A stretch of DNA of 64,000 bases from NCBI RefSeq assembly GCF_022846255.1, contig NZ_AP025682.1; one strand, 5' to 3'. The stretch comes from Escherichia coli (GTDB taxonomy: Bacteria; Pseudomonadota; Gammaproteobacteria; Enterobacterales; Enterobacteriaceae). Of this stretch, positions 1 to 16,664 are shown one piece after another. The notes beneath the pieces were generated by a model. That model ran no database searches. It was given only the letters and a program-made list of their open reading frames with translations, and had not been told where the DNA came from. Numbering within the stretch: the stretch's first letter is position 1; each line of letters begins with the position of its first letter. A program made the position numbers and the translations under genes.

Positions 1-1650
1 CTGACGGTCACCGTAACGGACTGTGGTGGAAATCCGGTTGCCAATGCCCCCTTTAGCATCAGACGTGGCGATGCTATAAATCGTCAAGGAACGGTGAATT
101 CAGCCAATCCGGTTTCACTGGATTCAACGGTTTTAACCAATACCTCGACGGAATATAAAGGAACAACTGGAGAAGACGGCACGGTGAATATTGCTGTAAC
201 CCAGAAGTCTGGTGAAGGGGTGAAAACTCCATTGTATATCAGTACGACCGGGATGGTTCAGCCGATCCAGCAGGATGTTATTTTCACCGTTGTAACCAGT
301 CCGGACAGTACGCTCGCCAATATGTGGGGCCATATGCCAGAAACCCTGACTGCGGCCAATGGGACTGTATTTGCTCGCCCCAAACTTTCTGCTGAAGCTA
401 ATGGCGGTGGTGGTACACAATCTGAGACTAACGAAGTATGGGCGATATTTAACCATAAGAAAGCAATTGCATCAGGAGCGAATGCGGTTGGTTGCGGTGG
501 GATGGAATACGTTCCCAGCGAGGAAAATTTGCACTCACTCTATAGTGCATTTTCTTCGGGAAACATCAAAATCACCCAGGGATGGCCGGTTTCTGTAATC
601 TATAAGTCCTCGACACCCGACAAATATGTAACAACAGCTCGTAATTACAATGCGGTTAACCTGAGCACCAACAGTGTGAAAGGTCAGCAAACATCCAATT
701 CAGTACACTATTTAGTGTGTCAAAAAGAGGCTGCTCCTGTCATAAAATCAATAGCCATCAGCACTCAAGATTCTCAGTATGTGTCGGTAGTAGGGTTCAA
801 TGACGCCAGAGATAATGGGGGTAGAGTGAAAACTTTTGATGCCCTGAAATTAAAAACATGGGGTAAGGGCAGTGGTTCGATGACGGTTAAAGTGACGGGG
901 AGCGATAATAAGCCATTAAAAAATGGTCCGTTTATGCTGCTACACGCTCCTGGGTTTGATCGCCAGGGCGGTATACACGCAAATCATACCGACACGGTTC
1001 AGTTTAAAGATAGTCATAGCAGTAGTACGAATAGGAATATGGGGGCTATGGACGTTTATTATGGGACAACAAATGATAGCGGTGAGCTGACGTTTTCATT
1101 AAGCCAGCCGCAGGATGGAACTGGACTAGCCGTGATCATGAGTGCCCGAGATGACGATTATGTTCATAATATACTCAGTAATGATTTCCCTGTTATTTTT
1201 GCGACAGAGACGAGCCCGGATACGAAAGAAGCGAAGTATTGGGGGTATATGTCTGAAACACAAGTACTTGGTGGCAGAGTATTTAATCGTCCTAAATTGG
1301 TGAGTGAGTTACCGGTGTCTGGGGATAGTATTAGTCCTGGAGGCGCTGATGCTGAGGTTTGGGCAGGGATTTCCGGGGATGATTCTCTTGCGGGTATTAA
1401 CGGTGGCTGTGCAGCAGATAAACGACCAACAGTAGCGGAGTTAAATGATTTGCGGTCTGTATATAATACGAGTCACCAATACGGCTACTTTATGAAAGGG
1501 GGATGGCCTGCAATCGGTAAAGATACTGGGCAGAATGAATACTGGACAGATGTTGCCGAGGCGCGTTTTGGATACATGGAGATGTATTCAGGAGATGTAC
1601 ATTACATTGCGGGTGGCCTAAACACGGCAATGCAGATCTGTGCGCAGTAA
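1..1650 (+). CDS. 3' end of a giant Ig-like repeat protein (Rat-family-like); the reading frame is open from window position 1, so the gene starts upstream of the window
   Basis: Frame 1 is open from nt 1 to the stop at 1648-1650 (ORF track lists only from the first Met at 94). The translation has two Big_1-like segments and two copies of the FTV.TSPD..WG(H/Y)M..RPKL motif that recurs nine times in the 2693-aa protein downstream. Confidence 0.75.
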   Translation: MTVTVTDCGGNPVANAPFSIRRGDAINRQGTVNSANPVSLDSTVLTNTSTEYKGTTGEDGTVNIAVTQKSGEGVKTPLYISTTGMVQPIQQDVIFTVVTSPDSTLANMWGHMPETLTAANGTVFARPKLSAEANGGGGTQSETNEVWAIFNHKKAIASGANAVGCGGMEYVPSEENLHSLYSAFSSGNIKITQGWPVSVIYKSSTPDKYVTTARNYNAVNLSTNSVKGQQTSNSVHYLVCQKEAAPVIKSIAISTQDSQYVSVVGFNDARDNGGRVKTFDALKLKTWGKGSGSMTVKVTGSDNKPLKNGPFMLLHAPGFDRQGGIHANHTDTVQFKDSHSSSTNRNMGAMDVYYGTTNDSGELTFSLSQPQDGTGLAVIMSARDDDYVHNILSNDFPVIFATETSPDTKEAKYWGYMSETQVLGGRVFNRPKLVSELPVSGDSISPGGADAEVWAGISGDDSLAGINGGCAADKRPTVAELNDLRSVYNTSHQYGYFMKGGWPAIGKDTGQNEYWTDVAEARFGYMEMYSGDVHYIAGGLNTAMQICAQ

Positions 1651-1686
1651 ATTTCAATATTAGCATTATTCTTTAAATGAATGTTT

Positions 1687-1717
1687 GCCCCCATGTTTTT
1701 ACATGGGGGCAATTTTT
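1687..1717 (+). terminator. Rho-independent terminator after the upstream giant gene
   Basis: Perfect 9-bp inverted repeat GCCCCCATG / CATGGGGGC with a 6-nt loop, followed by AATTTTT, 37 nt after the stop codon. Confidence 0.7.
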
Positions 1718-1776
1718 AATACCGATAAACCTGTGCTAAAGTTTTGCCTTATTAACCGAAATCGCAGGAGACTTCG

Positions 1777-2001
1777 ATGGAAGTGCAGTGTCCGGTTTGT
1801 CATCAATCTATTGAATTACATGGCGGTAGTGCGCATTGTGAATATTGCCAACAGGATATCGCGTTTCAGGCGCTTTGCCCGGATTGTCATCAACCCTTAC
1901 AGGTGCTAAAAGCGTGCGGTGCGGTGGACTATTTTTGCCAGAACGGTCACGGATTAATTTCTAAAAAGCGTATTGAATTTTTGCCGTTTAATATCATTTG
2001 A
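1777..2001 (+). CDS. yfgJ: Small zinc-ribbon protein, YfgJ-like (74 aa)
   Basis: AGGAG 7 nt upstream of the ATG. Four CxxC pairs (CPVC, CEYC, CPDC, plus C47/C54), typical of a double zinc ribbon. Sits where yfgJ lies next to xseA in K-12; identification from memory. Confidence 0.55.
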   Translation: MEVQCPVCHQSIELHGGSAHCEYCQQDIAFQALCPDCHQPLQVLKACGAVDYFCQNGHGLISKKRIEFLPFNII

Positions 2002-2059
2002 ATATATTGTTTTATCATTTATATATTCCATGTGAATGGTAAAACAATTTCTTACTGAC

Positions 2060-2110
2060 CGCACTATTAATATAATTGAGTATGAACAATCATGTATAAT
2101 GTTTAAGAAT
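2060..2110 (+). promoter_or_regulatory. Candidate sigma70 promoter region for sinH in an AT-rich intergenic stretch
   Basis: TATAAT hexamers at 2071-2076 and 2095-2100, the second preceded by TG; no well-spaced -35 found. AT-rich spacer 2002-2200 upstream of the sinH start. Confidence 0.25.
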
Positions 2111-2200
2111 ATATTTAGCCTTTTCTGTCGTGCTATCCCGGATGTTCTGGAATAGAATGGCAGAATTCATTTTTGACTTTATTGTCAATAGGGAAAAGGT

Positions 2201-4375
2201 ATGCTGCGATGGACACGCTGTATTATGCTAACATTTATCTCTGGGGCTGCTTTTGCGGCTCCAGAGATAAATGTTGAGCATAAAGAATCATTACCTGATT
2301 TAGGTAGTCAGGCCGCACAACAAGAAGAACAAACCAACAAGGGGAAATCGCTAAAAGAGCGTGGTGCCGATTACGTCATTAACTCCGCCACGCAAGGGTT
2401 TGAAAACTTGGCCCCTGAGGCGCTGGAATCTCAGGCCAGAAGCTATCTGCAAAGTCAAATCACCTCAACCGCACAATCTTATATTGAAGACACACTCTCT
2501 CCCTACGGTAAGGTCCGTTCGAACCTCTCCATTGGTCAGGGCGGCGATCTGGATGGCAGTTCCATCGATTATTTTGTTCCCTGGTACGATAATCAAACCA
2601 CTGTTTATTTCAGCCAATTTTCTGCACAACGAAAAGAAGATCGTACGATCGGGAATATTGGGCTTGGTGTAAGACATAATTTTGATAAATGGTTGTTGGG
2701 TGGAAATATATTTTATGATTATGATTTTACCCGTGGGCATCGCCGTTTAGGTTTAGGTGCCGAAGCGTGGACTGATTATTTAAAATTCTCTGGCAACTAT
2801 TATCACCCGCTTTCTGACTGGAAAGACTCCGAAGATTTCGATTTTTATGAGGAGCGTCCTGCGCGCGGCTGGGATATTCGCGCCGAAGCCTGGCTTCCCG
2901 CTTATCCGCAGCTTGGTGGTAAAATTGTTTTCGAACAGTATTACGGTAATGAAGTCGCGCTTTTTGGCACTGATAATCTGGAGAAAGATCCCTACGCGGT
3001 AACGCTTGGACTGAATTATCAACCAGTGCCGTTACTGACAGTTGGGACGGACTATAAAGCGGGGACCGGAGATAACAGTGATGTCAGCATTAATGCCACT
3101 CTTAATTATCAGTTTGGCGTTCCGCTAAAAGATCAATTGGATAGCGATAAAGTGAAAGCGGCGCACTCGCTGATGGGCAGCCGTCTTGATTTCGTTGAGC
3201 GTAATAACTTTATTGTTCTGGAATACAAAGAAAAAGATCCGCTTGATGTCACCCTGTGGTTGAAAGCGGATGCCACCAACGAGCACCCTGAGTGCGTCAT
3301 TAAGGACACTCCCGAAGAAGCCGTCGGTCTGGAAAAATGTAAGTGGACCATTAACGCACTCATTAATCATCACTACAAAATCGTTGCGGCCTCCTGGCAG
3401 GCGAAAAACAATGCTGCCCGCACGCTGGTGATGCCGGTTATCAAAGAGAATACTCTGACAGAGGGTAACAATAACCACCGGAACCTGGTGCTGCCTGCCT
3501 GGCAGTACAGTTCCGATCAAGCCGAACAAGAAAAACTCAATACCTGGCGGGTTCGTCTGGCGCTGGAAGATGAAAAAGGCAATCGGCAGAGCTCCGGTGT
3601 GGTGGAAATCACCGTTCAACAGGACCGTAAAATTGAGCTCATCGTTAACAACATCGCCAATGTACCGGATAAGAGCAATCACAGCCACGAAGCCAGCGCA
3701 CAGGCCGATGGTGTAGATGGTGTAGTGATGGATCTCGATATTACTGATAGCTTTGGCGACAACACTGACCGCAACGGTAATGTCTTGCCGCAGGATAATC
3801 TCAACCCGCAGTTGTTTGATGCCAACGATAAAAAAGTGACGCTGACGAATAACCCCTGCACTACCGAGACTCCCTGTGTCTTTATCGCCAAACAAGATAA
3901 AGAAAAGGGGACCGTTACGCTCTCCAGTACGTTGCCTGGCACCTTCCGTTGGAAGGCGAAAGCTGCTCCCTATGATGACAGTAACTATGTTGACGTAACG
4001 TTCCTGGGTTCTGACATCGGCGGGCTGAATGCCTTTATCTATCGTGTTGGTGCGGCTAAGCCCGTGAATCTTATCGGCAATAAAGAACCGTTGCCTCTCA
4101 ATAGCAGCTATCGCTTTGTGTTGTGGCGTGACGCTAACAAAGACGGCGTGTTCCAGCTATCAGAGAAACTCACTGAAGAGGAGATGAAACAGTATGACTA
4201 TCAGTGGGAATTCACGGGACATAGCGTGAATGGCAATACCGGTGCGCAAGCCAATACCACTAACGTCGATATAGAGATCCCGGCAACGAACAAGGAAGCG
4301 GCAGCGAAGTTTAGTGCCCAGGTAACCGATGGCGTGCAGGGATACGGTTTGCAGGTCAATTACAGCAAGAAATAG
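2201..4375 (+). CDS. sinH: Inverse autotransporter adhesin of the intimin/invasin family (SinH-like), 724 aa
   Basis: N-terminal signal peptide (…FISGAAFA/APE). Residues ~110-330 show intimin/invasin beta-barrel-type sequence (DYFVPWYD, LGLGAEAWTDYLKFSGNYYHPLSDW, GWDIRAEAWLP, LGLNYQP), followed by an Ig-like passenger. RBS GGAAAAGG upstream. Confidence 0.85.
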   Translation: MLRWTRCIMLTFISGAAFAAPEINVEHKESLPDLGSQAAQQEEQTNKGKSLKERGADYVINSATQGFENLAPEALESQARSYLQSQITSTAQSYIEDTLSPYGKVRSNLSIGQGGDLDGSSIDYFVPWYDNQTTVYFSQFSAQRKEDRTIGNIGLGVRHNFDKWLLGGNIFYDYDFTRGHRRLGLGAEAWTDYLKFSGNYYHPLSDWKDSEDFDFYEERPARGWDIRAEAWLPAYPQLGGKIVFEQYYGNEVALFGTDNLEKDPYAVTLGLNYQPVPLLTVGTDYKAGTGDNSDVSINATLNYQFGVPLKDQLDSDKVKAAHSLMGSRLDFVERNNFIVLEYKEKDPLDVTLWLKADATNEHPECVIKDTPEEAVGLEKCKWTINALINHHYKIVAASWQAKNNAARTLVMPVIKENTLTEGNNNHRNLVLPAWQYSSDQAEQEKLNTWRVRLALEDEKGNRQSSGVVEITVQQDRKIELIVNNIANVPDKSNHSHEASAQADGVDGVVMDLDITDSFGDNTDRNGNVLPQDNLNPQLFDANDKKVTLTNNPCTTETPCVFIAKQDKEKGTVTLSSTLPGTFRWKAKAAPYDDSNYVDVTFLGSDIGGLNAFIYRVGAAKPVNLIGNKEPLPLNSSYRFVLWRDANKDGVFQLSEKLTEEEMKQYDYQWEFTGHSVNGNTGAQANTTNVDIEIPATNKEAAAKFSAQVTDGVQGYGLQVNYSKK

Positions 4376-4430
4376 GATCAGCGCCATGGCTGATCGGGCC
4401 ACCGCTGAATGTTAACCAAGGAGAGTGTTT

Positions 4431-5423
4431 ATGAAACCTCATATGAAACGTGGCCTGACAAAAGTCGCGCTGGCGCTGATGCTGGCTGGATACTGTGCCG
4501 TGCCAGCCGCTATGGCGGAAGATGCCGCCTGGGTAGACAGTGGGACGACCGCTGAATTCGAAGGGACCATACCCTGGCTTTATCGCGAGGGGGGGAATGC
4601 CACGATTAACTCGGATGATGCGGATCACATCAAAGTAACGTCTGATGGTAAAGGTACTCGTCCTTCAGGTAGCGAGACGGATAAACGCCTTTACTCAGGA
4701 GATACCATCACGTTGGGGTGGGATATCGGCGATACCGAAGGGGATATCGACGATGGTCCAGATGGTATTGATGCGAAAACGACGGCGACTATCAAATGGT
4801 ACAGCTACAGCGATAATGCGGGTGGCGGTAAAACGGAGCTGACCGCAGCGGCGGGTAAGACGAGTTATAAACTCACTGATAACGAACGTGGGCGCTATAT
4901 CGGTGTTGAAATCCAGCCTATCACTCAGACCGGTAATCCCTTCCAGGGAACGTCGCTGACTCTGCTGGATATCTCAACGGCCAGCGGTGGCGGCAGCGAT
5001 ACGGACAATGTTGATCCTGGCCCGGTTGTGAACCAGAACCTGAAAGTCGCCATCTTCGAGAAAGGCACCAGTACCAACCTTATCGGTGGTAATACAGCCA
5101 TTGCGCTTAACAAAACGTATGTGGCCAAACTGTACTCGGATGAAAACCAGAACGATAAGTACGATGCGGGTACGGATGTGGACGTTACCGCTAACTATGA
5201 CTTTGCATGGGTCTTTAACGGTAACAGTAAACAACTTGCTGCGGCGGGTGGTATTGCCAACGCCAGCTTCGATAACAATGACATTGTTATTCCGCAAACT
5301 AACGAACAAGCAAGAGCCAGCCTTAACGGTAGTGACCGTAATGGTAAGACCGGTCTTGCAATCCCGGCAAACGGCGACGGCGTCCAGGGCTATACGCTGT
5401 CTATCATTTACAAACACCACTAA
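4431..5423 (+). CDS. sinI: Secreted protein of unknown function (SinI-like by position), ~330 aa
   Basis: AAGGAG 7 nt upstream of the ATG at 4431 (ORF track starts at the GTG at 4425). Signal peptide (…AVPAAMA/EDAAW). C-terminal DGVQGY motif shared with SinH; N-terminal W…G.T.EF.GT.P motif shared with the giant protein. Symbol assigned from synteny only. Confidence 0.7.
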   Translation: MKPHMKRGLTKVALALMLAGYCAVPAAMAEDAAWVDSGTTAEFEGTIPWLYREGGNATINSDDADHIKVTSDGKGTRPSGSETDKRLYSGDTITLGWDIGDTEGDIDDGPDGIDAKTTATIKWYSYSDNAGGGKTELTAAAGKTSYKLTDNERGRYIGVEIQPITQTGNPFQGTSLTLLDISTASGGGSDTDNVDPGPVVNQNLKVAIFEKGTSTNLIGGNTAIALNKTYVAKLYSDENQNDKYDAGTDVDVTANYDFAWVFNGNSKQLAAAGGIANASFDNNDIVIPQTNEQARASLNGSDRNGKTGLAIPANGDGVQGYTLSIIYKHH

Positions 5424-5431
5424 TGCGCACC

Positions 5432-5462
5432 AACAGCATTCCCGTATGGGAATGCTGTTTTC
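5432..5462 (+). terminator. Intrinsic terminator or attenuator between the sinI-like gene and the giant gene
   Basis: Inverted repeat ACAGCATTCCC / GGGAATGCTGT with loop GTAT, followed by TTTTCC, 9 nt after the stop codon. Confidence 0.45.
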
Positions 5463-5533
5463 CGCCTGTTTTGCTTAGCGACGCGTTAAGCAAAACGGGT
5501 TGACGTTTTGTTTATCATGCTGGAGTTTTCTAC

Positions 5534-8500
5534 ATGTCGGTATGTCTGAAACCAGGAAAAATCATTGTGCTTCTGGGCATGTTGGCAGCCTTTATGCTGT
5601 CTGACTTTGCACGGGCAGGAGTGGAATGGCAGACATATCCTGGTTCTACAGGCGAGTTTAACGGTACAGTTCCTATTGCCGATAGCGCCAGCGTACCCGT
5701 CTATCAGGGAAGCGTTCAGCTTGATCCTGCTGCATCTCATGATGTGGCGTTTTCTGCTAAACCGAATGAATTTAGCGTTGACGATGACGCTGCTAACCTG
5801 ATAGTCGCTAATCCTCAGGACAGTGAAGGCGACCAGTTTTCCACACCACCTGCGCTGCGCTGGGAAAAACAAACGCCGCCGACCGTTAGCCTGGTGTGGG
5901 CCGATGCCGCCACGCCGGATACGCCGCTTAATCCACAGCCTACCGCCAACCGTAGCTTTTGCGCTCAGGGCCTGGCCGGGCGTTCGCTGGTGGCCTGGCC
6001 GCAGATTGATGCGCAGCAGACCATTCCACTGCTTTATCTGCTGACTTCGACCGGTTATCCCTATGAGGGGACGGTGGCGCTGGCTGACCAGAAAGTGACG
6101 CTGAACATCGCGCCCGCGCAGGGCGATTTAATCTCGGTGAGCGCCAGTGGTTATAACGAAACGATCGCGGCGGCGAAAACCACCGTTGGTGACACCATCA
6201 CGCTAACTGTTACCACCAAAGACTGTCAGGGCAACGTTGCGGGCAATATTCCTTTTATTATCAAACGACAGGATGCGAAAAACCGCCAGGATGCGGTGAA
6301 TAACACCGCACCGGTGGTGCTGGATAGCACCGAGTTAACGACGACCGCGACCGAGTATCACGGCACATCGGATGCCAACGGTACGGCAACCATCACGGTG
6401 ACCCAACCTAATGGGCCCGGCGTCAAAACGCCGCTGGTGGTCAGCATCTCCGGCATTGCGCAAACCAGTGAGACGGCGGTTATTTTTACCGTACTCACCA
6501 GCCCGGACGTGGCGCAGGCCACGATGTGGGGCCATATGGCGGAAACGGTTGAGGCTCATGGCTACACGTTCAGCAGGCCAAAACTGGCGGCAGAAGTCAG
6601 CAATGAAAATGCCACGGTCGTCGATCACAACGAAACCTGGTCAACTTTCACCTGGAGCGGGGCAGACAGCCATTGCACCGTGCTGCCGGGCATGCGCCAT
6701 TTCGGCGCACTGGCGACCGTTATTCCCACCACGGTACAGACTGTCCTCGGCTGGCCGATGCAGGATGATTATTACTGGACATCGCTGGCGGGCACTACCG
6801 GGCAGCACCATGCGGCGGATGTCTCTAACCGTGCTGAAGCGCAAAAGCCGGATAGCACCACGTTTCTTGTAAGCTGCGTGGACAAACCCGCGCCTGACGT
6901 CGAACCGAAAATCGTCCTTACGCCAGAAAACTATGATGATACGGCACAGGCGATGAAAGCGAAGGTGGGTGAGGACGCCACGATGCGTCTGACGATCACC
7001 GACAATAAAAACAACGATCAACCGCTGGCGTATTACTACTTCTCGCTGCATCTGGATGACGGCGTTAACCGCAAAAATCAAACCGATCCTGCCTGGGAAG
7101 CTCATCCGGTACAGATTGCTGGCGGCAGTAATTTTCGCCAGGTCGACGCACATACCTATGAGGGCATGACTGATGTCAACGGTCAGGCTTCGCTAACCCT
7201 GAGCCAGCCTGGTGGCGCGGGCGTTAAAACTCACATTACGGCGAAAATGCGCAGCGATTTTAACGCCACGGATGCCAAAGATGTGATTTTTACCGTAATC
7301 ACCAGCCCGGACAGCGACAAAGCGCGGATGTGGGGCCATATGCGCGGCATTATTGAGTCCGGCAGTCTGTATAAACGCCCGTTGCTGGCGGATGAAACCG
7401 AGCATGAACTGGGAACAGTGCGGGAAAACAACGAAGACTGGGCGTTGTACGATCAAAACACCAGTATGCAGGCGGAATGCGGGGTGGGTCATATACCGCG
7501 CCAGAGCTCACTGGAAAGCCTGTTTTCAGCCCATCCCGGTAACGCGATTGGCACTGAGTATGGCTGGCCCACCGCACAACAGAGCTACCTAAGCGCGGTG
7601 GAGCAAGAAACGCATTCATCGGTGAATCTGGGGAACGGGAGCGTCGACAGCTATTCCGGCTTTAAGCAGAATTACCTCTCCTGTTCGGGTAATGAGATGG
7701 TAGCGAATGTTGAAGTCAGCACCGATCATGATGTGTCTGTTGGCACCCAAGCGCAAGCCAAAGTGGGTGACACCATCGTAATGACCGTGCGTACGATTAA
7801 CTCGCTAAATAATTCCCCGGTACCCTTTAGCGCATTCACCATTACCAAAGGTATGGGATATAACCGAGCGGGACAGGTGAGCGGGTTTGATGACCCGAGT
7901 AGCGGCGCAATCACGATGGATAACTCGCAATATGGTACATCACAGCCATCGATGGTTTATGCGGGAACAACCGATGTCCGGGGCGTGGCGACGGTCGAGA
8001 TTAAACAACCGCAGGGCGTCGGGCTAAGAACGGCGCTGAGCGTAACGCCGGTAAATTCCTACCTGCCGAATACCGTTAACTACAGCGTTATTTTTACCAC
8101 CCCAACCAGCCCGGATGTTTCCGGCGCGCAGATGTGGGGCCATATGGATGAAACGATTACCGTTGATTCATCAACCTTTAGCCGGCCTAAGCTGGCGGCG
8201 GAAATCGCCAGCCCGGACGGAACCCTGACCGAAAATAACGAAATCTGGGCGCGCGTGAGCCAGGCCAATACGTCCAGTACCAGCAAAGGCGGCTGCGGCA
8301 CCAATATGCTGCCGCGTCGCTCCCAGCTAAGCGCGTTGTATAGCGCCAACAGTGGTAACGCGGTGCAAACGACGCACGGCTGGCCAACGCAACGTCAGCC
8401 CTACTGGAGCAGCTCACCGGCGGATGTGACACCGCACTTTTTCACGATAGCGCTGAACGATGGCGCGCAGGCCATCGGCGGCAATACGCCGGTTTACGTC

Positions 8501-11500
8501 AGTTGCCTGACGACGGCGAACAAGCCTGCCAGCAGCATTACGCTGGAGGTGGTTGATAAAGCGCAATGGAATGCGGGGAATAACGCGGCAAAGCTGAAAA
8601 AAGGTGAGACACTACAGGTTAAAGTGACAGTAAAAGACTCGCAGGGTAACGCGTTAGCGGATATGCCATTTACCCTCAGTCGCGGTGATGGCTATACCCG
8701 TAGCGGCGAAAAACATATTGCCGGTAGCGGCGATGCGCTGGTAGCGCCCGTGGTGGTCAATGGCGGGTTGGCAGATGAAACAACGTTGAATGACACTGCA
8801 ACGGTGTATACCGCCATGACCGGCAGCGACGGCAGCAAAATCCTTAATATTACCCGCCCGGATACCCACGGCACCAAAACGGCGCTGACGGCAACGCTTT
8901 ACTCCGATGCGACGAAAAAAGACAGCCTGGACACGATCTTTACGGTGGTTACCAGCCCGGATAGCAGCCAGGCGAAAATGTGGGGGCATATGCCGGAAAC
9001 GGTGACGGCTGAGGACGGTACGGTCTTTAAACGCCCGCGGTTACTGAAGGAACTGAGCAGTCAGACTGGGCGAACATCAACGCTTGAAGACAACGAAAAC
9101 TGGGCGTTGTTTAACATTAATTATGCGAGCTCTTCCACGACGTATAGTGGCTGTGGAACCAACTATATTCCAACTCAGGCTGGTCTGACGTCACTGTTTG
9201 CTAATAATGCGGGCAACACCATGAAAACCGTGCAGGGCTGGCCGGTGGCAACGCGCTATTTGTCCAACACGTCCGACAATGGCAGCATGGAGCAGCGTAA
9301 CTACAAGGCGGTCGATCTCAGCAATGGCACGAGTGCGGCAGTGTCATCAACGGCGCTGCAACTGCTGACCTGTCAGACTACACCGGTAACCACGGTGAGC
9401 CAAATCCTGCTGGAAGCGGCAGATCCGGCGACGCTGGATACCACCTATAACGTGGTAAAAGCGAAAAAAGGCGAAGAATCCGTGGTGCGCGTCACCACCA
9501 AAGATGCACAAGGCAACCTGGTGGGCAATACGGCATTTATCCTGACGCGTGCCAACAGCGTGAGTCGGGCTAATGCATCAGCGACGATGAGCGTGGGCTC
9601 GTTGACGGTGACGGATGCCTGGGGCAATACGCGAAATAATTTCCAGTCGACAAGTGAAACCATTTACGGCGTGACCGGTGCTGATGGGGCAACGACATTG
9701 ACCCTGAAACAGGATAACAGTACCGGGTTAAGAACCGATCTCACGGCAAAACTGGATACGTCCAGCAGCGTCAAGGCAACGCTACCGGTGGTCTTTACCG
9801 TCGTGACCAGCCCGGATTCGCCAAAAGCGAATTTTTGGGGACATATGGCCGAAACGGTGGCGGCCTCCGATGGCTCGGTTTATAAGCGACCATTGCTGTT
9901 TGGCGAACTGACCAACAACTATGCGCGATATAGCACGCTTGAGAACGGAGAAAGCTGGGCAAGATTCACCTCGACTCAGTCGATTGACACCAGCATGAAT
10001 GGGTGTGGTACAGATTATATGCCGACGCTGGATGGTCTGAAGTCTTTGTATGACGCCAATAGCGGTAATGCGATGAATACGGTGCAGGGATGGCCGGTAA
10101 ATACGAGTTATCTCACCAACACCCCGAGTGATACACAAGCAGGGAGCCGTTACTACAATGTGGTGCAACTGAATTCTGGCGCGGTTTCGCAAATCGTATC
10201 CACAGTGCTGGCGTTACAAACCTGCCGCACGACGCCGTTGACGACTGCCAGCCAGATTACGCTGGAAGCCGCGGATCCTGCGCAGTTTGTCAGCATTGAT
10301 AGTACGCTTAGCGCTGTCAAAGCGAAGAAGGGCGATGAGGTGTCGATCCGCATTTCGACTAAAGATGCGCAGGGGAATTTAGTCGGCAATACGCCGTTTG
10401 CCCTGAAACACGCGAACTCGATCAATCGTCAAAATGTGACGTCATCGCAGAAAGTGTCGGTCACGACTGCAGCGGGTACGACGGTGGATACCAGTGCAGC
10501 GACCATCCTGTATGGCGTAACCGGGCCAGACGGAACGACGACGATGGCGCTCCGACAGGATGCGTCCACCGGACTACGAACCGACTTTTATGCCTTGTTG
10601 AACGATACCGGCGTGTCGTCGGGCACCTTGCCGGTGATCTTTACCGTTATCACCAGCCCGGACACGCCGCTGGCGGCCAACTGGGGCCATATGGCGGAAA
10701 CCTTTACCAGCAGCGAAGGCGTTACCTTCAAGCGGCCTTTCCTCAAAGCTGAACTTTCCGGCGGTACGGCGAAAACGGTCAATAATGAAGTCTGGTCGCT
10801 CCTGACATCGACTGAGAAAGCGGACGCCAGCAAGGCCGGGTGTGATGAGGCGTATCAACCGCAGACGACAGACATGCAGGGGCTGTATGCCGATTATCCT
10901 AACGGCCAACTGGCAACGGTGCTCGGCTTGCCGACTGCCGCCGGGAACTGGTGGGATTATGACATGATGGCGGCAGTGAGCAATAGCTGGAGTTACCAGG
11001 TGTTTTCGCCGGGTAATGGCCAAACGATTCAGGCATCGTCCGGCTATACGGCGGTAGTGATGTGTCTGGTAAAACCACATACGGAAGCGGCCACAATAGA
11101 GATTACCTCGACGGCGCAGGACGCAGCAAAATCGGCCAGTAATGGTGGACGACCGAGCGCCGTAGCGAAGAAAGGTGAGACGATTCCGTTGACGGTGACC
11201 GTGCGTGATAGCGCCGGGAACCCGATGCCATATGCCGACTTTACCCTCTCGCGTGAAACGACGCTGGATCGCTCGAAAACAGCTGTTAACAGTGCGGTGG
11301 ACGATCTTACCGTAACGGCATTGGTACCGGCGAACAGGGATAGCGTGTTGACAGCGAGCGGAGCAAAAACTCTCGCAACGACGGGCAGCGATGGCACTGC
11401 CACCTTTGAGGTGGGGCAGTACTCTACGACCGGGCTGGCGACGCCGTTAACCGTGACGCTGGCGCGTGATACGACGAAAGCTGCCACGCTGGATGTTATC

Positions 11501-13615
11501 TACACGGTGATCACCAGCCCGGATTCGCCGAGTGCGAAATTCTGGGGGCATATGCCAGACACCTTTACCAGCTCGGCGGGCGTCACCTTCAAACGGCCGT
11601 TGCTGAAAGCCGAAGCGACGTCAGGCTCATCAATTAGCACTAACGGTAACGGTGAAGTGTGGGCGTATATGAGCAACTTGCAAAATTTAACATCGACAGA
11701 TTGCCCGCTGGAGTATCAGCCGCGCAGCAACGAGCTGTTGGATTTATATAGCGATCACCCGAACGGCGCGATAATGACTGACCTGGGGCTACCGATATAT
11801 GCAGGCAAGTGGTGGGCTTATGATATGGTCATGCCGGATTTATATACGTGGCAGTATCAGACTGTCAGCCTGAGCACCGGAGATATCGCGAAGAGCTCGT
11901 CAACCAACGCGCTGATGCTTTGCCTGACGAAGCCGCATCCGGCAGGCGTCAGCGTAATGTTGACGTCATCCGCAATGGATAACGCCAGAAGCCTCAGTAA
12001 TGGCGGGCGACCTAGCGCGTCAGTGAAAAAAGGCAACCCACTGCCAATTGTAGTGACGGTCAAAGATCGTGATGACAACCCGCTGGCGGGAGAGGCCGTG
12101 ACGCTCAGGCGTGGTTCAGCGATGAGCCGTTCAGGAGCAGTAGTGGGCACGCCGGCAAATGCAATGACGTTGACAGAGTTGACACCCGTGTCGGCGGAGT
12201 TTTCTCTGGCCGCACACGATACGCAATGGCAAGGTTTCACCGGCAGTGATGGTACGGTCACTTTCAATGTTGAACAGCCTGAGACCATCGGCCTGGCCAT
12301 CCCGTTCACCGCTATACTGGCGCGAGATGTGGCAACCACAACTGTCCTTGATGCGATCTTTACCGTCGTCACCAGCCCGGATTCCACAATGGCGACCTAC
12401 TGGGGTCATATGCCGGATACGGTCACGGCGGAAAACGGCGTGGTCTTTGAACGGCCTAAATTGTTGAAAGAGTTGCCGTCGAGCACCGGAATTAGTCAGG
12501 TGACGGATAACAATGAAGTCTGGCCGCTGTTTAAGGCAACGCAAAGGGAAGATAGCAGCCTCAGTCCTTGTGAAGCGGCGCGTCGGCCATTGAGCGATGA
12601 TTTAGAATCGCTCTACGCGCGCTATCCGGGGAACACGCTGACGACACAAATCGGTTGGTCTACGCGGTATACATGGTGGGCGCTGGATAACTGGCAGGGG
12701 AATGCCCAGGTTGTTAGTCTGAGTGATGGCTTAAAGTGGTCGACGGTGAATACCGCGTATCAAGGGTGTCTGGTTAACCCGCGCGCGACGGTCTCCAGCG
12801 TCACGCTGACATCAACGGCGCTGGATGACGCCACACAGGCGGCGACGGTGAAAAAAGGCGACGCCGCGCCCATTGTCGTTACCGTAAAAGACAGCGCCGG
12901 GAAGCCGGTGCCAAATATCGCTTTTACCCTAAAACGCGGTGAGGCCGTGCCACGTAACAGCGGGGCGACGCTGTATGGCGATGTGGATGCGATGGACGAT
13001 TTGGCCGTGCAACCTTCATCCGGTGCGGCAGTCACGTTGGCTGACAGCGGAAATACCATCGACGGAGTCACGGGAGCGGACGGTACGGCAAGCTTTACCG
13101 TTCGTCAGGATAATACGCCAGGATATAAAACGCCGTTGACGGTGACGCTAACGGATAACGCCACCATAACGGCGACGCTGGACACGATTTTCACCGTGCC
13201 GACCAGCCCGAATGTCGCCACGGCGTATTTCTGGGGTCATATGGCGGATACCGCCACGGTAAGTGGCAAGACGCTGCATCGCCCGCTATTAAAATCGGAG
13301 TTGCCGTCAGGCGCTACCGCAGCAGCAACGCCTGATGTAAATAATGAAACCTGGGCGCTGGCGCATGTTATGGATTCCTCTAAATGGGATGTCGCGCAGC
13401 AGTGCGGCAGTATGAATAACGTGCCGAGCAGTGCCGAATTACAAACATTACACTCCGGCTTTAGCACATTGGGATGGCCGTCCTCGATAAGCTTCCCGTA
13501 TTTATCTACTGATAAGGCTGGGTCGTTCTATTGTGGTGTTGATGAAGGCTCTGGCAGTCTCAACTGTGGCATTCAGCCTGCGAAAACGCCGGGGTTTGCA
13601 ACCTGTTTCCAATAA
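5534..13615 (+). CDS. ratA: Giant secreted Ig-like repeat protein (RatA-like), 2693 aa
   Basis: GGAG 6 nt upstream of the ATG. N-terminal signal peptide (…[11 protein letters not shown]), no lipobox Cys. Nine tandem ~280-aa modules, each with a Big_1-like segment, an (I/V)FTV.TSPD…WGHM…RP.L motif and a Cys-pair segment. No beta-barrel-like region recognised. Confidence 0.85.
6170..13500 (+). repeat. In-frame tandem array of nine coding modules inside the giant gene (period ~800-860 nt)
   Basis: The TSPD/WGHM motif recurs at about nt 6500, 7300, 8110, 8950, 9810, 10650, 11515, 12370 and 13205. DNA copies are diverged, with pairs 4/5 and 6/7 most alike. Confidence 0.75.
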
Positions 13616-13645
13616 CCTTATCCACCTTGTCAATATGAGGTTCTG

Positions 13646-15197
<1,552 letters not shown>

Positions 15198-16664
15198 ATG
15201 CTACGTATCGCTAAAGAAGCTCTGACGTTTGACGACGTTCTCCTCGTTCCTGCTCATTCTACCGTTCTGCCGAATACTGCTGACCTCAGCACCCAGCTGA
15301 CGAAAACTATTCGTCTGAATATCCCTATGCTTTCCGCAGCAATGGATACCGTAACGGAAGCGCGCCTGGCTATTGCTCTGGCTCAGGAAGGCGGTATCGG
15401 CTTTATCCACAAAAACATGTCCATTGAACGCCAGGCAGAAGAAGTTCGCCGTGTGAAAAAACACGAATCTGGCGTGGTAACCGATCCGCAGACCGTACTG
15501 CCAACCACGACGCTGCGTGAAGTGAAAGAACTGACCGAGCGTAACGGCTTTGCTGGCTACCCGGTTGTTACCGAAGAAAACGAACTGGTCGGCATTATCA
15601 CCGGTCGTGACGTGCGTTTTGTGACCGACTTGAGCCAGCCGGTTAGCGTTTACATGACGCCGAAAGAGCGTCTGGTAACCGTGCGTGAAGGCGAAGCCCG
15701 TGAAGTGGTGCTGGCAAAAATGCACGAAAAACGCGTTGAAAAAGCGCTGGTGGTTGATGATGAATTCCACCTGATCGGCATGATCACTGTGAAGGATTTC
15801 CAGAAAGCGGAACGTAAACCGAACGCGTGTAAAGACGAACAAGGCCGTCTGCGTGTAGGTGCAGCGGTTGGCGCGGGCGCTGGTAACGAAGAGCGTGTTG
15901 ATGCGCTGGTTGCCGCAGGCGTTGACGTTCTGCTGATCGACTCCTCTCACGGTCACTCTGAAGGTGTTCTGCAGCGTATCCGTGAAACTCGCGCTAAATA
16001 TCCTGACCTGCAAATCATCGGCGGCAACGTGGCAACTGCTGCAGGTGCCCGCGCGCTGGCAGAAGCCGGTTGCAGTGCCGTTAAAGTGGGTATCGGCCCT
16101 GGTTCTATCTGTACGACGCGTATCGTGACTGGTGTCGGTGTTCCGCAGATCACCGCCGTTGCTGATGCAGTAGAAGCCCTGGAAGGTACCGGCATTCCGG
16201 TTATCGCTGACGGCGGTATCCGTTTCTCAGGCGATATCGCTAAAGCTATCGCCGCTGGCGCAAGCGCGGTGATGGTAGGTTCCATGCTGGCAGGTACTGA
16301 AGAATCTCCGGGTGAAATCGAACTCTACCAGGGCCGTTCTTACAAATCTTACCGTGGTATGGGTTCCCTGGGCGCGATGTCCAAAGGTTCTTCTGACCGT
16401 TACTTCCAGAGCGACAACGCTGCCGACAAACTGGTGCCAGAAGGTATCGAAGGCCGCGTAGCCTATAAAGGTCGCCTGAAAGAGATCATTCACCAGCAGA
16501 TGGGCGGCCTGCGCTCCTGTATGGGCCTGACCGGCTGTGGTACTATCGACGAACTGCGTACTAAAGCGGAGTTTGTACGTATCAGCGGTGCGGGCATTCA
16601 GGAAAGCCACGTTCACGACGTGACCATTACTAAAGAGTCCCCGAACTACCGTCTGGGCTCCTGA
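15198..16664 (+). CDS. guaB: IMP dehydrogenase
   Basis: Translation from the ATG at 15198 ([16 protein letters not shown]…) gives the 488-aa GuaB; the ORF-track start at 15129 is an upstream in-frame Met. Confidence 0.95.

Follow-up and report, generated by a model that had tools for sequence, protein, structure and literature searches.

What is the giant protein encoded beside sinH and sinI on many Escherichia coli chromosomes, and how would it reach the cell surface? We addressed this question on a 64,000-nucleotide stretch of E. coli contig NZ_AP025682.1 (assembly GCF_022846255.1; this whole stretch is "the window"), in which an open reading frame (ORF) at positions 5534–13615 on the + strand starts with ATG and translates without a stop from end to end into 2693 amino acids (aa). 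An initial annotation, made from the sequence alone, had proposed a secreted giant protein of this length, and the ORF, a signal peptide recognised by inspection and the tandem modules behind it all hold up. Curated profiles and gene order identify its product as the RatA-like protein of the sinH-sinI-ratA island, a chromosomal relative of Salmonella CS54 that goes by the name "ila" in E. coli; this is the Escherichia "RatA-like" paralogue. Most of its length consists of nine copies of a unit homologous to the receptor-binding tip of inverse autotransporters, and we lean slightly towards a role as a surface adhesin that depends on SinH.

Nine immunoglobulin-like and lectin-like modules in series

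The protein contains exactly nine copies of a motif of the form [IV][FY]T[VT].TSP[DN] with WGHM after it, at residues 317, 585, 853, 1135, 1420, 1702, 1989, 2275 and 2552. The copies are spaced 268–287 aa apart, and the modules measure ~270–290 aa. Pfam searches returned nine BIg21 domains (PF05688) and nine InvE_AD "Adhesion domain" matches (PF05689) in strict alternation, with full-length matches at E = 1e-18 to 4e-35. The nine tandem units of ~280 aa first read by eye are thus real and far beyond chance, and the profile searches that had been suggested as a check show all modules to be related. These scans covered residues 1–1199 and 1501–2693 as two pieces; the BIg21 and most of the InvE_AD domain of module 5, which lie between the pieces, were placed through the module alignment and the precomputed domain string of an identical protein. 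That precomputed string shows the same alternation. Two weaker InvE_AD matches (1e-17 and 5e-08) come from a domain interrupted where a scanned piece begins or stops. The modules are as follows.

6170..6973, + strand: module 1 (aa 213–480), BIg21 219–321 and InvE_AD 324–449
6974..7777, + strand: module 2 (aa 481–748), BIg21 483–589 and InvE_AD 592–718
7778..8623, + strand: module 3 (aa 749–1030), BIg21 745–856 and InvE_AD 860–992
8624..9478, + strand: module 4 (aa 1031–1315), BIg21 1024–1139 and InvE_AD from 1142
9479..10324, + strand: module 5 (aa 1316–1597), modelled; a lectin-like alpha/beta domain comes after an immunoglobulin (Ig) beta-sandwich
10325..11185, + strand: module 6 (aa 1598–1884), BIg21 1600–1706 and InvE_AD 1709–1845
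11186..12043, + strand: module 7 (aa 1885–2170), BIg21 1881–1993 and InvE_AD 1996–2130
12044..12874, + strand: module 8 (aa 2171–2447), BIg21 2167–2279 and InvE_AD 2282–2412
12875..13612, + strand: module 9, terminal (aa 2448–2693), with two additional Cys; it ends in ...GFATCFQ, a C-terminus conserved in the family

The anatomy of each unit differs from the one originally proposed. In place of a three-part module, both Pfam and the structural model described below give two domains with the conserved motif at their junction: I/V-F-T-V closes the BIg21 model, and TSPD...WGHM opens the InvE_AD model. The first domain is assigned to BIg21 (1e-18 to 1e-27), Big_1 matching it only weakly (E 0.04–0.5). 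The residues picked out as conserved fared better. When 30 modules taken from four alleles are aligned, many of them are invariant (the invariant positions include T126, T129, S130, P131, W139, G140, H141, M142, R156, P157, L159, E177, W179, L209, G223 and C268, with an A, a further E and a further P besides), and the segment quoted as an example was found in module 5; the reported "CG", however, holds only in part, the first Cys being present in nine of nine modules and the Gly after it in five.

We modelled module 5 with AlphaFold2, using the 30-module alignment as input. The model (mean predicted local distance difference test score, pLDDT, 90.9; predicted template modelling score, pTM, 0.83) shows a beta-sandwich followed by an alpha/beta domain, and a single long strand (model residues 118–131) continues from the first domain into the second. 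Such an Ig and lectin-like "superdomain" has been described for intimin D2–D3 and invasin D4–D5 (PMC7718877), and a phmmer comparison of RatA with InvE (PDB 5n40) gave E = 4e-21, with the pattern TSPD..WG.M..RP.L..E..NE.W retained. The modules thus combine Ig-like domains with an adhesion domain that is probably C-type-lectin-like, as do the passengers of inverse autotransporters. Given the Pfam domains, the model and the match to InvE, each RatA module is, on present sequence and model evidence, homologous to the Ig and lectin-like receptor-binding tip of these proteins, with nine such tips in series. InvE of Yersinia pseudotuberculosis (5N40), intimin (1F02) and invasin (1CWV) each have an N-terminal barrel and a single adhesion domain that tips an Ig stalk, whereas RatA has no barrel and repeats the Ig and adhesion unit nine times.

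A RatA-like protein of the sinH-sinI-ratA island

We next considered which member of the Rat family the window encodes. NCBIfam NF011844 ("RatA-like protein") matches residues 3–2693 over positions 1–2683 of the 2683 in the model, at 5430.9 bits against a cut-off of 3870. The Salmonella models for RatA (NF011843) and RatB (NF011842) score 2008.7 and 2233.6 bits, under their respective cut-offs of 3700 and 4079; we accordingly reject an equivalog of either Salmonella protein in favour of a related paralogue. Among named homologues, a RatA-like protein from Escherichia albertii comes closest (96% identity), and WP_137501078.1, deposited as E. coli, is the exact window sequence. The likeness to ratA of a CS54-type island that had been noted earlier therefore stands at the level of the Rat family, with NF011844 matched and sinH and sinI upstream, but not as orthology to Salmonella RatA. 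The genes concerned are as follows.

2201..4375, + strand: sinH, the gene that opens the island; intimin-like inverse autotransporter in which a short passenger follows the N-terminal beta-barrel
4431..5423, + strand: sinI, barrel-less "autotransporter-associated" protein with a signal peptide
5534..13615, + strand: ratA-like gene; signal peptide, N-terminal domain and nine BIg21 and InvE_AD modules
13669..15036, - strand: xseA, exodeoxyribonuclease VII large subunit; core gene bounding the island, named in syntenic records, with Pfam Exonuc_VII_L matched at a related locus

The sinH product matches NF033423 (inverse_SinH) over its full length (1474.2 bits, cut-off 999) and the sinI product matches NF040711 (partner_SinI; 370.7 bits, cut-off 165), while the Pfam barrel IAT_beta was matched on sinH at a related locus carrying the same gene. 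Syntenic E. coli records show the order der-yfgJ-sinH-sinI-ratA-xseA (convergent)-guaB-guaA, with ratA labelled "adhesion domain-containing protein". The gene is already known, as are its family, the two repeat domains and the genomic island; they are curated in NCBIfam and Pfam and treated in the literature, and PMC12928451 describes the "ila" cluster (sinH, sinI, ratA) in extraintestinal pathogenic E. coli (ExPEC) as related to Salmonella CS54. The Escherichia RatA-like protein (NF011844, PRK15316), as found in ila of ExPEC and in E. albertii, has the same nine-module architecture at the same yfgJ-xseA site, and the window gene encodes that protein. The molecular function of RatA, described at the outset as poorly defined, is still undefined in the available literature.

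In Salmonella enterica, RatA and RatB share the plan of an N-terminal domain followed by BIg21 and InvE_AD modules, residues 23–1493 of the RatB model aligning to residues 21–1494 of the window protein, and a table in PMC10048834 likewise places sinI, sinH and xseA next to the rat genes. The Salmonella RatA and RatB models are shorter (1860 and 2435 aa) and hence have fewer modules. Salmonella carries two or three rat genes together with shdA, in contrast to the single rat gene and lack of shdA in the window.

The linkage of these genes extends beyond the window. A gene with the IAT_beta barrel and a SinI-like gene lie directly upstream of all three other Rat genes examined, which encode proteins of 2708 aa, 784 aa (a paralogue with two modules) and, at a second locus, 2683 aa. 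By megablast against 5426 complete E. coli genomes, sinH-sinI was found in 1709 and ratA in 1621, always on the chromosome, which places the sinH-sinI-ratA island in ~30% of complete genomes.

Some genomes hold further copies. A second cassette of inverse autotransporter, SinI-like protein and two-module Rat (784 aa) occurs in GCA_018430465.1 (locus L008, 4745–10355) and GCA_005387665.1 (locus L009, 147–5762), and the latter genome also encodes the exact window RatA. At locus L008 the cassette sits between der and yfgJ, directly upstream of the main island, a site at which the window has none. Another locus (L010, 1–10232) carries tandem Rat genes of at least 3008 aa and then 743 aa, recalling Salmonella ratB-ratA; the 743-aa protein has a degenerate N-terminal motif in which PVALNES replaces PVYQGS.

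Module number and sequence vary on an old nine-module array

We then evaluated the diversity of RatA between strains. Homologues with both native termini (MSVCLKPGK... and ...GFATCFQ) contain 7 (~2131–2378 aa), 8 (~2400–2440 aa), 9 (~2680–2697 aa) or 11 (3264 aa) modules, and a complete E. coli genome (NZ_CP184058.1) carries an intact coding sequence for a 2157-aa form, which bears out the strain-to-strain variation in module number that had been anticipated. Nine modules are by far the dominant state, with clusters of hundreds to thousands of members against one to a few for the variants. The variant forms include loss of module 7 with a hybrid module 8, hybrid modules 2/3, loss of modules 6 and 7, and loss of modules 5 and 6; the 11-module form has an additional module pair resembling 5 and 6. 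Alleles are also mosaic: modules 1–4 and 9 of database protein P0003 are 97–99% identical to those of the window, and modules 5–8 only 76–88%. These comparisons are evidence that RatA varies between strains in both module number and sequence, through in-frame loss or gain of different modules together with mosaic recombination.

On a broader scale, RatA falls into two allele classes ~66% identical to each other, to one of which the window protein belongs. Identity between the classes is 62–64% for the adhesion domains, 69–71% for the Ig domains and 72–74% for the N-terminal domain. The 5' ~2 kb of sinH, which encodes the barrel, is ~88% identical between classes, while neither the 3' end of sinH nor any part of sinI is still detected by megablast; the C-terminal domain of SinH, SinI and RatA therefore diverge together. 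Separately, NZ_AP043644.1 shows an apparent deletion that joins the 5' part of sinH to the adhesin gene.

Many database copies of ratA (P0119 and others) are truncated by frameshifts. A 1827-aa form ending in RLFREMVS is present on 183 contigs, and the pattern suggests that ratA has been inactivated in particular lineages while sinH was retained. A similar 1850-aa fragment is labelled O25b:H4-ST131.

The array itself seems to be old. Pairwise identity among the nine modules ranges from 26 to 45%; modules 4/5 (44.7%) and 6/7 (40.6%) are the closest pairs, as had been noticed by eye, followed by 7/8 (40.1%), 5/6 (39.3%) and 4/8 (39.0%). The further proposal of recent internal duplication is not supported, however, since even the best pair is far too diverged and each module of the second E. 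coli allele class is most similar to the window module with the same number (52–81% identity). Because every module has such a positional orthologue, the nine-module array predates the split between the allele classes.

An N-terminal motif shared by RatA and SinI

The region preceding the modules was read as follows, together with its counterpart in SinI.

5534..5617, + strand: predicted Sec signal peptide, aa 1–28, with cleavage after ARA (A-x-A site); read from the sequence
5618..5674, + strand: mature N-terminal motif, RatA aa 29–47, common to the SinI family
5618..6178, + strand: Rat-family N-terminal domain, aa 29–215, beta-rich
~4524–4580, + strand: SinI copy of the shared motif, aa 32–50 counted from ATG 4431; AAWVDSGTTAEFEGTIP

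No anchor could be recognised in RatA. The IAT_beta barrel (PF11924) is absent from the scanned residues and sits in the separate SinH. A lipobox of the form L-[AS]-[GA]-C is also absent, since the signal peptide ends ...MLSDFARA/G (a slash marks the cleavage site) and the only early Cys is residue 4. RatA also differs from TpsA (type Vb) proteins, which are recognised by an N-terminal two-partner secretion (TPS; haemagglutination activity) domain and a beta-helical shaft. Its N-terminal domain was seen only in Rat-type proteins, and our search for solved structures found no relative of it.

Directly after the signal peptide, RatA- and SinI-family proteins share the motif K-x-G-x-W-Q-x5-T-G-x-I-N/Q-G-T-x-P, with [SG] at the position after the first K. 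The mature N-terminus of the Rat family reads ...A/ALK[SG]G.WQEL..[ST]TG.INGT.P.AD....PVYQGS and includes some of the most conserved residues of the family; that of the SinI family reads ...A/ANGNLK[SA]GQWQIV[ST][ED][ST]TGTIQGTVPW, and a loose pattern is found in 62 of 82 distinct SinI N-termini. No gap is needed to align the two families, and their W, G and P do not vary. In the window proteins, BLASTP paired RatA 37–47 with SinI 40–50 (GTTAEFEGTIP) at E = 0.029, at the same distance from the cleavage site. When segments were anchored only on G-[TS]-x-P, hhalign gave a probability of 94% (E = 1e-7, 23 columns), and an unanchored profile comparison of the RatA N-terminal domain with full-length SinI gave E = 4.9e-5 (probability 68%) over 76 columns, within which lies a second common motif, D-[ST]-E-G-D. 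In the RatA model, the first 13–19 mature residues are predicted to be disordered, and the motif has a pLDDT of 41–65.

Outside this N-terminal match, SinI is related to the C-terminal domain of SinH and not to RatA: its C-terminal ~120 aa resemble the SinH C-terminus (SinI 206–329 against SinH 609–721, E = 8e-10 by BLASTP). The RatA N-terminus had no BLASTP match to SinH. The shared motif is not described in the available literature, in which Heinz et al. 2016 (PMC4943183) called the Rat N-terminus "highly divergent". It fits the published hypothesis that both proteins are partners or substrates of SinH, and we tentatively raise the possibility that it could be a previously undescribed targeting or docking signal by which SinH would recognise its barrel-less partners.

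Expression signals and remaining genes of the window

Three candidate RNA hairpins flank ratA.

5432..5503, + strand: two stable RNA hairpins in the sinI-ratA spacer, with stems of 12 bp and ~17 bp
13648..13680, + strand: hairpin AGCCTGATA-N10-TATCAGGCT followed by TTTTTT, with a 9-bp stem, 33 nucleotides (nt) past the ratA stop; read from the sequence

The spacer folds with a minimum free energy of -49.5 kcal/mol (z = -6.1 against shuffles), and in the divergent E. coli allele the stems are kept and the loops altered. A consensus scan called no terminator in the spacer; the hairpins are possibly an attenuator or an mRNA-stability element for the ratA transcript. The ratA ATG is preceded, at a distance of 8 nt, by a GGAG ribosome-binding site. 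The downstream hairpin, which overlaps the stop codon of convergent xseA (13669–13671), is probably a terminator serving ratA, and was missed by the consensus scan because its loop exceeds 8 nt. In this promoter and terminator scan of 1500–15300, matches were not enriched relative to shuffled sequence, and no promoter could be clearly assigned to ratA.

ORFs scanned elsewhere in the window score as core genes usual for Escherichia: ppx, ppk, bepA, acrD, narQ, aegA, transketolase, malic enzyme, tmcA-like and an EAL-domain phosphodiesterase, with the phosphodiesterase, tmcA-like and malic-enzyme matches under their equivalog cut-offs. Scans over the whole window found no Rfam family at gathering score and no tRNA gene. 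Core genes of the window are only ~91–92% identical to typical E. coli, as seen in the 13669–14500 part of xseA. Together with the E. albertii origin of the closest named RatA homologue, this suggests that the DNA may come from E. albertii or a cryptic Escherichia lineage, although the identical RatA is deposited as E. coli.

Possible routes to the cell surface

Given nine receptor-binding-type tips on a protein with no anchor of its own, how would RatA be displayed? At little better than even confidence, we favour a RatA-like island protein that is delivered to, or held at, the surface via SinH and works there as a multivalent adhesin. In this scheme, RatA would cross the inner membrane by Sec export, and each adhesion domain would fold after export, its two conserved Cys pairing as a disulfide, as expected from intimin D3 and invasin D5. 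The co-encoded SinH would then deliver RatA to the cell surface or hold it there, in a type-Ve "two-partner" arrangement like that of ZirT with ZirS and ZirU, and the flexible mature N-terminal motif common to RatA and SinI may provide the docking or targeting signal. Surface RatA would form a long multivalent adhesin whose nine lectin-like sites share one core motif, and allelic and module-number variation would change its surface and length.

Several precedents bear on this scheme. Rat-like proteins have been hypothesised to be inverse autotransporter substrates (Heinz et al. 2016), and the ZirTSU analogy has been drawn for IatB/SinH and the downstream gene (Goh et al. 2019, PMC6714894). In Salmonella, the inverse autotransporter ZirT is reported to export barrel-less Ig-like partners encoded downstream, and the sinH-sinI-ratA order is alike in that an inverse-autotransporter gene precedes genes for signal-peptide-bearing, barrel-less proteins with Ig-like domains; SinI, the partner that resembles the C-terminus of the SinH passenger, can be set beside Zir as the same operon logic. 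Secretion dependence has been reported experimentally for Zir only, however, and RatA is ten-fold larger and has lectin-like domains. Colonisation phenotypes are reported for the locus in two secondary sources: a Salmonella ratB mutant fails at mouse caecum colonisation (PMC10048834, citing Kingsley 2003), and uropathogenic E. coli from which ila genes have been deleted is attenuated in a mouse model of urinary tract infection (PMC12928451, citing Shea 2022).

A number of points weigh against SinH-dependent display. No experiment in the literature shows RatA on the surface or a dependence on SinH. The 12-stranded barrel of an inverse autotransporter is normally occupied by its own linker, and threading nine lectin-like domains, each closed by a disulfide, through that of SinH would be difficult. 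We know of no ligand for RatA. About 88 genomes have a sinH match without a ratA match, and these, with the many lineages in which ratA is truncated, imply that RatA is dispensable for SinH. Two conserved hairpins stand between sinI and ratA, and a review reports co-transcription for sinH with sinI only. Finally, a search for a third family with the N-terminal motif gave only 42 candidates, all short fragments, and the motif could serve otherwise, e.g., in chaperone recognition or as part of a common fold.

RatA might instead be exported independently of SinH, e.g., by type II secretion, and then be released or re-bound to the surface, as is reported for Acinetobacter InvL, an alternative that we regard as unlikely. 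To our knowledge, InvL has no linked inverse autotransporter. As described in PMC9245377, InvL of Acinetobacter baumannii is an invasin-like adhesin that, like RatA, has a signal peptide and lacks a barrel, and it provides a precedent for export by type II secretion, unlike the SinH route proposed for RatA. A pathway that moves folded periplasmic proteins would suit RatA, with its Sec signal peptide and its folded domains, which are probably disulfide-bonded, and the conserved sinI-ratA hairpins hint at separate expression control. This route is at odds, however, with the tight and wide linkage of Rat genes to inverse-autotransporter and SinI genes and with an N-terminal motif shared specifically with SinI. 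Moreover, the window holds no type II secretion genes, the downstream genes scanned being those of core metabolism and transport.

Still less probable, in our estimation, is a role in the periplasm or on the inner side of the outer membrane, with RatA serving, e.g., as a scaffold or an accessory of SinH and SinI, and not as a surface adhesin. The lack of a barrel, lipobox or other recognisable anchor would be consistent with such a role, and surface exposure of RatA is not shown in the available literature. Yet all nine modules are homologues of the tip with which InvE, intimin and invasin bind receptors outside the cell. The adhesion domains are also the most diverged between allele classes and the alleles are mosaic, a pattern typical of exposed antigens, and the colonisation phenotypes cited above likewise argue for an exposed protein. 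That the ORF is an assembly artefact of collapsed or expanded repeats, or a decaying and functionless gene in this strain, is extremely improbable: repetitive giant genes are often mis-assembled and many database copies are truncated, but the DNA-level repeats in ratA (at most 126 nt, 60–80% identical, essentially the segment coding for the junction motif) have diverged too far for collapse, at least five contigs of independent assembly, one of them a 4.94-Mb record, encode the identical 2693-aa product, the frame is open throughout, and the native N- and C-termini are conserved across the family. The mis-assembly that the initial annotation had named as a possible refutation is thus not borne out.

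Implications for the island

No other product of the sinH-sinI-ratA island comes near RatA in size. The sinH gene of the island is reported in all E. albertii examined (PMC11420993) and encodes a protein pursued as an ExPEC vaccine antigen (PMC9937491). To a gene already known, the present analysis adds a corrected anatomy, a documented polymorphism in module number and the RatA/SinI motif, and it rules out mis-assembly and recent duplication. In the corrected domain description, the repeated element is a rigid Ig and lectin-like unit, a homologue of the InvE tip, present in nine copies. The N-terminal motif shared with SinI makes the long-standing question of whether RatA is a SinH substrate directly testable by mutation. 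If the motif does act as the signal proposed here, sinH-sinI-ratA would be a true two-partner secretion system of type Ve, and its substrates would carry a definable signal corresponding to the TPS domain of type Vb systems.

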